A stretch of DNA of 64,000 nt from a phage. Below the pieces are notes generated by a model that was given only the letters and a program-made list of their open reading frames with translations, did no database searches and had not been told where the DNA came from. Location of the stretch: the sequence record PZ452594.1; one strand, 5' to 3'. A program made the position numbers and the translations under genes. Every line of letters begins with the position of its first letter. Within the stretch, counting starts at the first letter, position 1. Of this stretch, positions 28,371 through 40,467 are shown one piece after another.

Positions 28371-28649
28371 TTATTCTTTAAATCTGATTAATTTATTCAT
28401 AGACTTTGAAACTTCTGCACGAACCTCATGTAAGTTTTTAAGCTGTTCAAGACGCTGTTCATAGTAAGCAATTTCATCTTCTTCGAGACAGTCCTGTGAA
28501 TCTTCTTTAAGATAACGTGCATAGTCCTGGAAAGCTTTACGGACTACTTCCTGGAAGTCATCAAGACTTTGAATTTTCTTAGGAGCGGCAGATACACGAC
28601 GAGGGGCAGTATAATACTCATAACCAAACCCTGCACTTAATTGAGCCAT
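28371..28649 (-). CDS. Hypothetical protein (about 92 aa)
   Basis: ORF; internal ATG coupled to upstream stop. Confidence 0.4.
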
Positions 28650-28915
28650 TAGTATTTTTCCTCTGGTTGGAACACAGCACGGCAAGCCCACATACTTGCT
28701 TCTTTGAGTTTCGTTTTAGCAATAGTTAACTGATCGAGGCTTTCGGCGTAATTCTTCGCGAGTTCATCATCTTCACAGCTATCAAATGCTTCCCAAAATT
28801 CATCGTATAAAGCATCAAAGATAAGTCCTAAACGAACTTCAGCGTCTTTGATAGCATTCACTTTACCGATTTTCTCTTCAGTATGCGGCTTATAACCTTT
28901 AATGTCTTCAATCAT
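28649..28915 (-). CDS. Small protein at the T4 vs.4 position (candidate Acb2-like cyclic-nucleotide sponge)
   Basis: 88 aa; assignment by position in regB-denV interval only. Confidence 0.3.
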
Positions 28916-29129
28916 ATTTGACTTCCTCACCAGTACATAAATCATATTCAACTAAACGAATAGGTTCATGAATGCCATATCCCTGAACAGAAATTTCTGT
29001 CGTAGGATAAATTCCATCAATATCACCCATATTCCACGCTTCGTTAAATTGCTGTTCGCCTGAATTACTAAACCACTCGGCGAAAGCATTTAGCACATCT
29101 TTAGAACCTTCAATAATTATCTTTGCCAT
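28908..29129 (-). CDS. Hypothetical protein (73 aa)
   Basis: ORF. Confidence 0.4.
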   Translation of the reverse strand: MAKIIIEGSKDVLNAFAEWFSNSGEQQFNEAWNMGDIDGIYPTTEISVQGYGIHEPIRLVEYDLCTGEEVKYD

Positions 29130-29491
29130 TATAAGCTCTCAGTAAAGGTACGAGCAATAACGTCGCGCTGCTGTTCCGGAGTCAGAGAGTTAAAGCGAAC
29201 TGCATAACCGGATACACGGATGGTCAGCTGTGGATATTTTTCCGGATGCTTAACTGCATCTTCCAGAGTTTCACGACGCAGAACGTTAACGTTCAGGTGT
29301 TGACCACCTTCAATTTTAACTGTAGGCTGTGGCTCAATTTCAATTTCACGAGCATGCAAACCGTAGAAAATTTCTGGGTCTACAAAAGAGTCCTCTTTAA
29401 AGGTTTTAGAGACAATAATTCGTGCTTGAATACCATCTTCAAAATAAATAGTACCTTTATGTGTGCCTTCAAGAATTTGATATGCTTTCAT
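29129..29491 (-). CDS. Autonomous glycyl-radical cofactor (GrcA/YfiD-like)
   Basis: C-terminus [60 protein letters not shown] with RVSGY glycyl-radical motif. Confidence 0.85.
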
Positions 29492-29498
29492 ATAAACC

Positions 29499-29828
29499 TC
29501 AATTAGAAAATAAATTTATCCAAGATTGTTCTTTAATTAAAAATGGCTCAGAATCATATGCCATTAAACTTTGGGTGATTAGTCCTTTAAAAGGTCCATC
29601 AATAAATTCCATGGTAAAATATGGAATTTTATTCATTAACTGTGCGTTAGGAGCAGTGCACAAAACTCTGCATCCTTTGAATACGCCTTTTTGTAATTTG
29701 TATTGCTTGGGATAAAATTCGCTTAAAATGTTGTTATTTGCCAAAATTTCAAAATGATTCACCAATTTATTTTTAATAGTTTTTGGCGAAAAATAAAGAT
29801 ATTCGAAAAGCTGTGTGTCTGTCATCAT
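29499..29828 (-). CDS. Hypothetical protein (about 109 aa)
   Basis: ORF; start at MMTDTQ coupled (ATGA) to upstream stop. Confidence 0.4.
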
Positions 29829-30364
29829 TGCATTCCGATTACGAAAAACTGCGGACGAGTAATACCACCAATGCAACATTTACTATTACAGCAGTAGTGT
29901 ACAGTGTCAATATGGACGCTATAAATCTTATCCATATCAGGAGATTTGACAGGCTCATCAATTATATACAAAATTCGCGAAAGCGATAAACCTCTGAACT
30001 TACTTCCTTTATTACCAATAAAACTGCGCACAGAATCAGTAAATAAACGAAAACGTATATCATCATTAGAATAACGCAAAAATTCCTTTTTAATGTTATT
30101 TGCAGAAATTTTAGCGTAAGCTGAAGTATTAGAAAGAACAATAACTGTTCCGCCATCATACAGCCAATTAGCAGCAAAGTTAGTCACAGCAATTGATTTA
30201 CCGGATTGACGTCCACCATCTATACGAAGTGTGCAGTACTGTTTAAGTAATTCTTCAAATGGCGGGATATATTCGTTTTTACAAATTTCTTCTACTCTAG
30301 CATCAGAATGGTGTGTAAAAGCATTCATCAGGGATAGATACGGGCCAGTTAAAAATGTTCTCAT
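29825..30364 (-). CDS. Small P-loop ATPase-like protein; start uncertain (30364 or 30421)
   Basis: Walker A GGRQSGKS, Walker B-like LYIIDEP. Confidence 0.45.
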   Translation of the reverse strand: MRTFLTGPYLSLMNAFTHHSDARVEEICKNEYIPPFEELLKQYCTLRIDGGRQSGKSIAVTNFAANWLYDGGTVIVLSNTSAYAKISANNIKKEFLRYSNDDIRFRLFTDSVRSFIGNKGSKFRGLSLSRILYIIDEPVKSPDMDKIYSVHIDTVHYCCNSKCCIGGITRPQFFVIGMQ

Positions 30365-30505
30365 ATTTTCTCTCTTAATTTTTGGGCCATTCCATGGCAC
30401 ATGAGTTGTCCATTCCTGCATTACCCATTACCGCGCTTTGGCTCGACCTTATTACAGGTTGGCGGGAATCCCTCACAGAATCATGAGGTCCAGGTTGTTC
30501 CCATA

Positions 30506-30979
30506 TTATTTGAACGATTTAACGTACTGAATAGAACCTTTACTATTTACGAAAGCGATTTTACCATTTTTATTATACATGGTAGCAGTACGCTGATAGC
30601 CATAAGTTTGTTTACCAGATTGATAACCAACTAATGCGAAATTATCTTCGCCCATTTTATTCTGTTTAGCGCGAATGCGTTCATGACCATGTGCCATAAG
30701 AACCTTAGCATCACCAGTTGCAATGGATCTACGAGTTTTTTCATCTTCAACTGTATTAACAAAGTCGTCAAATGAATCAAATTTAGCATGAGATTTATTA
30801 TACAGTTTTCCATCTACTGCATAATTATATCCCTGTACATCCATCTCAACTTCTGTACCATCATCCAATACAGCAGTGATTTTTTGACCTTTTTTAAATT
30901 TCAAAAGATCAGTAAAAGATTCAGCAATAATTTGAGAATTAATAGCTGCTTCAGTGATAAATTCTTGATATGTTTTCAT
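30506..30979 (-). CDS. Internal (capsid-packaged) protein with capsid-targeting leader
   Basis: N-terminus MKTYQEFITEA matches T4 internal-protein CTS; adjacent to denV. Confidence 0.65.
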   Translation of the reverse strand: MKTYQEFITEAAINSQIIAESFTDLLKFKKGQKITAVLDDGTEVEMDVQGYNYAVDGKLYNKSHAKFDSFDDFVNTVEDEKTRRSIATGDAKVLMAHGHERIRAKQNKMGEDNFALVGYQSGKQTYGYQRTATMYNKNGKIAFVNSKGSIQYVKSFK

Positions 30980-30988
30980 ATGTTTCCT

Positions 30989-39044: not shown

Positions 39045-39455
39045 TCAGCCTCTATCAACGATAGCATGAGTATGGGCATTTACGATTTGCCACCAGTCGA
39101 AACGATTGGAACCATAATCTGGTTTATTTTCATTTTCTTTAATGATATCACGCAACTTATCTTCTGTTTCAGCATACGCAATTAAATCATCATATCCACC
39201 GCAAGGATAATAATTATCACCTGCGAATAAAAGAAAATTTACCTTAGATGGATTTACGTAATAATGGTCTTTAGGATATTTAGTTCCTCTCCAATCAGTT
39301 ACTTCAACATAACGGTAAGAAAATCCATTTTTACTTTCAATCCAACTCCACGCTTCAAAAGGAGTATTAAAAACTTTATCAGGTATTAAATTACCTTCAA
39401 AATGAGAAGGATTTGCATAATCCCCGGCATAAACATAATATTCGTTAATACTCAT
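39045..39455 (-). CDS. Hypothetical protein (136 aa)
   Basis: ORF. Confidence 0.45.
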   Translation of the reverse strand: MSINEYYVYAGDYANPSHFEGNLIPDKVFNTPFEAWSWIESKNGFSYRYVEVTDWRGTKYPKDHYYVNPSKVNFLLFAGDNYYPCGGYDDLIAYAETEDKLRDIIKENENKPDYGSNRFDWWQIVNAHTHAIVDRG

Positions 39456-39641
39456 TTATTCACCTTTAGAAATTTTATCCATAACGATAGCGATTAAACC
39501 AATTAAAAATGCTACTACAAGCGAAAACACATTTTCTGCTGTAGTTAATAATCCGCATATAAATCCAACAAACATTGAAAAACTAAAAGCGGAAGCAGAA
39601 ATTGCAATAGCAACATTTCGAATTAATTCACAACGTTTCAT
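39456..39641 (-). CDS. Small membrane protein (61 aa)
   Basis: Two hydrophobic helices; early promoter upstream. Confidence 0.4.
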   Translation of the reverse strand: MKRCELIRNVAIAISASAFSFSMFVGFICGLLTTAENVFSLVVAFLIGLIAIVMDKISKGE

Positions 39642-39660
39642 TTTATTCTCCTCGGTAGTT

Positions 39661-39690
39661 GATAGGGTAATAGTATCACTACCCTATCTA
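39661..39690 (-). promoter_or_regulatory. T4-type early promoter
   Basis: GTTTAC-N18-TACTAT; 23-bp block TGATAGGGTAATAGTATCACTAC repeated at 39959-39981. Confidence 0.5.
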
Positions 39691-39699
39691 AAAGTAAAC

Positions 39700-39933
39700 T
39701 TATTTTTTACGAAAAATTGATTTATATTTATCAGCCCATTTCTCAATGACTTTTGCCGGGCCATAGATAACAAAGTAATCGCCAAACTCTTCACCACCGA
39801 GTTGACCGAAATCATCTAATGCATCACGAAGAACTCCATGAGGCATTTCACCCATTTTATCTTTCTTGCCAGTGTAAATAAACTCAACTTTTACATCAGC
39901 AGTTTCAGCAATAAATTCTTGATACGTTTTCAT
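39700..39933 (-). CDS. ipI: Internal protein I-like capsid-packaged protein (variant)
   Basis: N-terminus MKTYQEFIAE (exact T4 CTS) from ATG at 39933; mature part unlike T4 IPI as recalled. Confidence 0.65.
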   Translation of the reverse strand: MKTYQEFIAETADVKVEFIYTGKKDKMGEMPHGVLRDALDDFGQLGGEEFGDYFVIYGPAKVIEKWADKYKSIFRKK

Positions 39934-39969
39934 TTTGTTCTCCAATTTCACATTTGTTTTGATAGGGTA

Positions 39970-39999
39970 ATAGTATCACTACTAAAACCCCATGTAAAC
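39970..39999 (-). promoter_or_regulatory. T4-type early promoter upstream of ipI-like gene
   Basis: GTTTAC-N18-TACTAT on minus strand. Confidence 0.5.
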
Positions 40000-40011
40000 A
40001 ACTTTGTGAAA

Positions 40012-40467
40012 TTATTTTAAATCGTCTGCCCAATCGAGTTTAAGAGGCTCTTTGTATTCACGGTCAAGTACAACCGGAATTTGTACATCACCGCTAAATG
40101 ATAAGGGCCCAACATTATAAGACAATGTTATATGCGGTGTGTAATCATCAAAATCATGTGTAGCACCTAGTGCCCGCGCATACATGTGTCGACAGCGCAG
40201 ATATTCAGAATCTAGCACAAGTACAAGAGTCGATCCATCTTGTGTTTTCCATACTTCTAAATGTCCAGAAGAAGCTACTTCAAAACTTCCACTCGATGGA
40301 ACATATGGAACATTTACTCTTGAATAACATATAGTTGAATGAATTTTTTCTCTAGGAACTGGATTAGGAACACGTAAAGAGCGCTGAAGTTCTTCCAGCG
40401 CATCAAGTGTTAATTCTGAAAACTTAGCTGCTACATAAAGACCCGTTGAAAAGTCTTTAAATTCCAT
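40012..40467 (-). CDS. 57B: 2H phosphoesterase (gene 57B; Acb1 anti-CBASS nuclease homolog)
   Basis: 151 aa; two H-x-T/S motifs (IHSTI and PHITL); position next to 57A. Confidence 0.7.

Follow-up and report, generated by a model that had tools for sequence, protein, structure and literature searches.

Phage T4 encodes two proteins directed against CBASS (antiphage signalling based on cyclic oligonucleotides), an immune system of bacteria in which these molecules serve as the signal. The product of gene 57B, Acb1, was found through activity-guided fractionation as an enzyme degrading cyclic GMP-AMP (cGAMP). Hobbs et al. defined its tetrad H44/T46/H113/T115 and its C-terminal lid, the double mutant H44A/H113A was catalytically dead, and T4 carrying a deletion of acb1 was restricted by CBASS operons (PMC9117128). 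The product of gene vs.4, Acb2, was described by Jenson et al. in 2023 as a hexamer with three bound cGAMP molecules and a dissociation constant of ~30 nM (PMC10097602). Here we compare with these two systems the putative 57B and vs.4 genes in a stretch of 64,000 nucleotides of phage DNA (record PZ452594.1), which as a whole is referred to as the window. A first reading of the letters alone (the sequence-only reading) had proposed both genes as anti-CBASS candidates. The functions that it gave for the T4 proteins, degradation of cyclic-nucleotide immune signals by 57B and sponging of cyclic dinucleotides by Vs.4, are borne out by the literature (PMC9117128; PMC10097602, PMC10312549).

Y8 and F82 of T4 Vs.4 stack on cGAMP, and Y8, H11, K23 and R79 contribute hydrogen bonds and salt bridges; an important part is also played by S74 and T12, and L29, F33, A66, A73 and A77 take part in the hexamer interface (PMC10097602). 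In the work of Cao et al., T4 Acb2 bound cyclic dinucleotides but neither cA3 nor cAAG, and a D61R mutant was still without cA3 binding, whereas Acb2 of Pseudomonas phage PaMx33 additionally binds cyclic trinucleotides via R67 and T74 (PMC10312549).

The 57B open reading frame (ORF) of the window encodes a protein identical at 151 of 151 positions to residues 2-152 of T4 57B (NP_049750.1). The Pfam family PF23474 Acb1 matched it at 202.7 bits, residues 8-149 spanning profile positions 1-144 of 144; the curated cut-off is 27 bits for this family and for PF24729, the family matched by the second gene. Acb1 of Erwinia phage FBB1 (structures 7T26 and 7T27) served as the structural reference, and the crystallised protein 7T26 matched residues 8-148 with an E value of 4.1e-62. 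The two H-x-T/S motifs pointed out by the sequence-only reading are present in this ORF (Table 1). H-x-[TS] motifs by themselves are weak evidence for a 2H phosphoesterase. Here both align with the HTT and HIT motifs of 7T26, the complete HxT/HxT tetrad of Acb1 is present, and the catalytic histidines coincide exactly with those of T4 Acb1, the two proteins being identical over 151 residues. Against the T4 proteins the E values for the two ORFs were 2e-116 and 4e-63, far beyond chance. The window protein shares with T4 Acb1 the tetrad and the region of the C-terminal lid, and from the 100% identity to T4 and the match to 7T26 it is predicted to adopt a 2H phosphoesterase fold with such a lid. 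Since the proteins are identical, the same mechanism as in T4 would be expected.

At the DNA level 57B differs from T4 by six nucleotides in five codons (1.3%), all of them silent (five synonymous and no non-synonymous codons), which in a codon comparison indicates purifying selection. The gene lies between the gene at the ipI locus and the 57A homologue, which is followed upstream by gene 1 (dNMP kinase). This is the arrangement of T4, where 57B is likewise immediately downstream of 57A, and the assignment of the ORF to the 57B position was thus correct.

The RefSeq label of T4 57B and its homologues is 'RNA ligase', and PHROG 755 carries the same label. Read literally, this would place 57B with the LigT-like 2'-5' ligase/2H family, as an enzyme of RNA ligation or RNA repair and not an immune-evasion nuclease, and a 2H fold is indeed common to 57B and LigT-type enzymes (PMC9117128). 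The label reflects similarity at the level of the fold only and is a legacy annotation superseded by experiment: the identical T4 protein was isolated as a cGAMP-degrading enzyme, its deletion sensitises T4 to CBASS (PMC9117128), and the curated Pfam family matched by 57B over its full length is Acb1. A ligase function is therefore most improbable, and we retain 57B as acb1.

The product of vs.4 is identical to T4 Vs.4/Acb2 (NP_049728.1) at 84 of 88 positions (95%) over the full length. The best match among solved structures was PDB 7UQ2 (Vs.4), with an E value of 1.7e-53, followed by a weak match to PaMx33 Acb2 (8H2J, 8IXZ; E about 0.05), and Pfam PF24729 Acb2_Tad1_hairpin matched at 71.2 bits over profile positions 1-58 of 58. 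The sequence-only reading had based this assignment on position alone, and the similarity to Acb2 for which it asked has now been found by alignment, as has the agreement of the catalytic histidines that it required of 57B. The position itself also stands: the ORF lies between regB and the GrcA-like gene, in the T4 order regB-vs.3-vs.4-vs.5-vs.6 (GrcA), and T4 Vs.4 has the same length of 88 residues and the same slot between vs.3 and vs.5. Exchange of unrelated genes at a fixed position does occur in T-even genomes, as at the ipI and ipII/ipIII loci of the window, so that an unrelated small protein could in principle have occupied the vs.4 slot as a placeholder. We found no other support for this, and the full-length identity to T4 Vs.4, the match to 7UQ2 and the Pfam match above the cut-off exclude it. 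Both countermeasures proposed by the sequence-only reading are thus present at the level of protein sequence.

The six ligand contacts Y8, H11, K23, S74, R79 and F82 are all present in Vs.4 of the window, T12 is likewise unchanged, and so are the hexamer residues L29, F33, A66, A73 and A77. For a family alignment, 46 related IMG/VR loci were fetched and 41 intact homologues translated, giving 37 distinct sequences with T4 and the window counted. The six ligand contacts were invariant in 37/37; among the hexamer residues, A66 and A77 were conserved in 37/37, A73 in 36/37, L29 in 35/37 and F33 in 28/37. Residues ~1-30 at the N-terminus and ~69-88 at the C-terminus are nearly invariant in the family, and the centre (~34-68) is a hypervariable segment with indels. 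The IMG/VR homologues L044, L046 and L047 look frameshifted or truncated.

The vs.4 gene differs from that of T4 at 23 of 267 nucleotides (8.6%), and its neighbours are less diverged, with 7/462 in regB (1.5%) and 9/363 in vs.6 (2.5%). Sixteen codons carry synonymous changes and four carry non-synonymous changes, all four within codons 44-52; taken over the gene, the codon differences indicate purifying selection. This higher divergence, together with four non-conservative changes within nine residues, could suggest that the allele of the window (F44, S46, D50, L52) is weakened or retargeted and no longer sponges 3'3'-cGAMP as the T4 protein does. We consider this very unlikely. None of the residues for which a part in ligand binding or hexamer formation has been published is substituted; the four changes fall in the most variable columns of the family, each of which holds 5-10 residue types among the 37 distinct homologues; and outside codons 44-52 only synonymous changes, 16 in all, are seen. 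By tblastn against deposited phage genomes, Vs.4 homologues were found in 1,232 phage records, of which 64 share this allele with at least 99% identity, with 100% protein matches in vB_EcoM_Shinka, slur04 and FL44. Because of these 64 records, we regard the Vs.4 of the window as a common and conserved allele and not as a decayed copy.

The changes cluster at the hairpin tip of Acb2, and gaps in the alignment with PaMx33 Acb2 fall in the same region. There is a slim chance that the cluster might reflect diversifying pressure, for example evasion of a host factor able to recognise Acb2 itself, or a shift in the binding of decoy or immune nucleotides and hence in sensitivity to Panoptes-type systems; the alternative is relaxed constraint.

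As to ligand range, PaMx33 Acb2 (p26; 8H2J, 8H2X, 8IXZ) belongs to the same Pfam family and its Y11 and K26 align with Y8 and K23 of the window, although overall sequence similarity is marginal. Where PaMx33 has R67, T4 Acb2 and the window both have D61, and both have T68; the combination of an Arg at the position of R67 with a Thr at that of T74, which marks the trinucleotide-binding subtype, is thus absent from the window. Sharing D61 and T68 with T4 Acb2, the protein is assigned to the dinucleotide-only T4 subtype.

In the mechanism proposed for the pair, Acb1 would act as a metal-independent 2H phosphoesterase whose C-terminal lid would close over the cyclic nucleotide while the HxT/HxT tetrad cuts the 3'-5' bond 3' of adenosine; going by the T4 literature, it would destroy adenosine-containing cyclic di- and trinucleotides. 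Acb2 is expected to form a helical hairpin that assembles into a hexamer with three pockets at the dimer interfaces. In each pocket a single cyclic dinucleotide would be clamped, Y8 and F82 stacking on it and Y8, H11, K23 and R79 adding hydrogen bonds and salt bridges, so that the signal would be sequestered and not destroyed. By analogy with T4, Acb2 of the window should take dinucleotides and not cyclic trinucleotides, the latter being left to Acb1, and the two proteins would counter the CBASS signal independently of each other.

Taken together, the phage of the window very probably carries both known anti-CBASS countermeasures of T4, 57B/Acb1 and vs.4/Acb2, and we put the probability of this at about 0.95. 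The assignment is based on sequence identity, conservation of motifs and contact residues, synteny and purifying selection; the biochemical activities and an anti-CBASS effect in vivo would follow from the published work on the T4 proteins. Nothing in the sequence contradicts the acb1 and acb2 assignments. Two observations limit this reading. Acb1 of the window is without the annotated first Met of the T4 protein, and sigma-70-type promoter-like sites were no commoner near either gene than in shuffled sequence. Scans for promoter and terminator consensus sequences around the two genes gave 12 sites against 10.6 +/- 3.4 in shuffles and 13 against 8.7 +/- 2.9. Transcription of acb1 and acb2 is presumed from T4, and no conclusion on transcription units is drawn.

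The shortened N-terminus of Acb1 can be traced to the junction of 57A and 57B, which reads GAATGATGG in T4 and GAATAATGG in the window. Relative to T4, one G-to-A change at 40468 turns the 57A stop codon from TGA into TAA and removes the first of the two tandem 57B ATG codons of T4. Because of this change, 57B of the window starts at T4 residue 2 and is one residue shorter.

The coordinates of the two genes and of the other features are given in Table 1. All genes of the stretch lie on the minus strand; the sequence-only reading had the limits of both ORFs exactly right and omitted their strand, which is corrected here. It had also listed the two under one span of 11.8 kb (28649-40467). We rejected this as a single locus, since acb1 and acb2 are two unlinked genes in different gene runs, the ~11 kb that separate them holding ~30 genes and a tRNA cluster.

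Table 1. Positions of acb1, acb2 and other features in the window, numbered from its first nucleotide
Feature	Position	Strand	Description
57B/acb1 coding sequence	40012..40467	-	151 residues + stop; putative anti-CBASS 2H-phosphoesterase nuclease by homology to T4 57B, PF23474 and 7T26
Acb1 catalytic motif 1, H43-S44-T45 (T4 H44-x-T46)	40333..40341	-	CAT TCA ACT read directly; aligned to HTT in 7T26
Acb1 catalytic motif 2, H112-I113-T114 (T4 H113-x-T115)	40126..40134	-	CAT ATA ACA read directly; aligned to HIT in 7T26
57A stop/57B start overlap	40465..40469	-	TAATG (T4 TGATG); DNA alignment with T4 and codon comparison
57A homologue	40467-40709	-	directly upstream of 57B
vs.4/acb2 coding sequence	28649..28915	-	88 residues + stop; putative cyclic-dinucleotide sponge by homology to T4 Vs.4, 7UQ2 and PF24729
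vs.4 codons 44-52	28760..28786	-	all four amino acid differences from T4 (L44F, N46S, C50D, F52L); codon comparison
Shine-Dalgarno-like GAGGAAG	28922..28928	-	within the 3' end of vs.5, 6 nucleotides before the vs.4 ATG; read directly
regB	27850-28311	-	local order as in T4 and RB18
vs.3	28371-28649	-	local order as in T4 and RB18
vs.5	28908-29129	-	local order as in T4 and RB18; no Pfam match
vs.6/GrcA	29129-29491	-	Gly_radical Pfam match; local order as in T4 and RB18
ORF at ipII/ipIII locus	30506-30979	-	157 residues
ORF in e.2 region	32434-32922	-	162 residues
extra ORF after e.8 homologue	35901-36362	-	153 residues
tRNA-Tyr-like gene	37538-37624	-	ninth tRNA of the cluster
extra ORF between trna.2 and trna.3 homologues	38590-38970	-	126 residues
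ORF at ipI locus	39700-39951	-	77 residues from the second Met

Both acb1 and acb2 lie close against neighbours read in the same direction, their stop and start codons overlapping, which fits expressed genes. The stop codon of vs.5 (28908-28910) overlaps the start of vs.4 by 8 nucleotides, and that of vs.4 in turn overlaps, in the sequence TAATG, with the start codon of the gene downstream. The product of vs.5 has 73 residues in the window and in RB18, whereas T4 vs.5 has 58 residues and is separated from vs.4 by a gap of 36 nucleotides. A version of vs.4 with 100 residues, starting at an upstream TTG at 28951 in the ORF list, was rejected in favour of the ATG at 28915. The ATG has a GAGG-type ribosome-binding site and agrees with the T4 and RB18 annotations and with the crystallised protein. 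Homologues also share the ATG start, and in several distant ones an in-frame stop precedes it by 1-5 codons.

Megablast of two segments holding the two genes, window 28300-29500 and 39700-40800, against deposited phage genomes matched hundreds of Tequatrovirus records and identified the source as a T4-like phage of this genus, with Enterobacteria phage RB18 (NC_054906) as the nearest relative. Identity to RB18 was 100% over the vs.4 region (28300-29500) and 98.5% over the 57B region (39700-40800), which is nearer to KIT03 and JK1 (both 99.5%). This difference between the two regions is the usual mosaicism of T-even phages. The gene order is the same in the window, the T4 record NC_000866 and the RB18 record, and the G+C content is ~31-40% across the window.

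Several other differences from T4 were seen between the two genes. In the window, as in RB18, ipII and ipIII of T4 (between denV and e) are replaced by one protein of 157 residues, assigned to phrog_3155 (internal virion protein) and Pfam DUF7412, with the N-terminus MKTYQEFITEA. At the ipI locus lies the gene of another small internal protein (phrog_8111), whose resemblance to T4 IPI is limited to its first ~16 residues (MKTYQEF vs MKTFKEF; BLASTP E value 0.004), the shared part being the N-terminal MKTxxEF signal. IPI* of T4 has an anti-restriction function, and this is probably not encoded at the ipI locus of the window. In the interval from the e.8 homologue to the stable-RNA/tRNA region, which is without a gene in T4, the window has an extra ORF of 153 residues. 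The N-terminus of this ORF, MKTYAQFLMTEA, is similar to the internal-protein leader, and it belongs to phrog_2280 (unknown function) with no Pfam match. A further ORF absent from T4, of 126 residues, is found between the trna.2 and trna.3 homologues (phrog_4301, unknown function, no Pfam match). In the e.2 region of T4 the ORF of the window has 162 residues vs 102 in T4 and belongs to phrog_2203 ('membrane protein'); the T4 record has at the corresponding place, upstream of e.2, an unannotated gap of ~160 nucleotides.

The tRNA cluster contains a ninth gene, called tRNA-Tyr(GTA) by ARAGORN, which is not among the eight tRNAs of T4. The Rfam tRNA models scored it below the gathering threshold, the best being tRNA-Sec with 29.9 bits against a cut-off of 47. 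In T6, Yersinia phage PST and a few others, this DNA carries a tRNA-Tyr annotation. At least 80% of a 141-nucleotide query around it was covered by only 24 phage records. The listed GTG start of segB (37599) overlaps this tRNA-Tyr-like gene, and segB must therefore really start further downstream, at the ATG near 37491-37500.

Both genes are already known and have been characterised by experiment in T4, so no new biology is implied, and exact or near-exact sequences of both have been deposited many times. The value of the result lies in correct annotation and not in discovery. Most deposited T4-like genomes label vs.4 as 'hypothetical protein' and 57B as 'RNA ligase', and the correct call bears on the host range to be expected. 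By analogy with T4, the phage of the window should resist type I, II and III CBASS signalling via cGAMP, cUA or cAAA. The guard system Panoptes (OptSE) fires when Acb2 sequesters its decoy nucleotide, the sponge activity itself being the trigger, and T4 escapes it through loss of acb2 (PMC12657218). Going by this work on T4, carrying Acb2 should at the same time expose the phage of the window to Panoptes-type guard systems.

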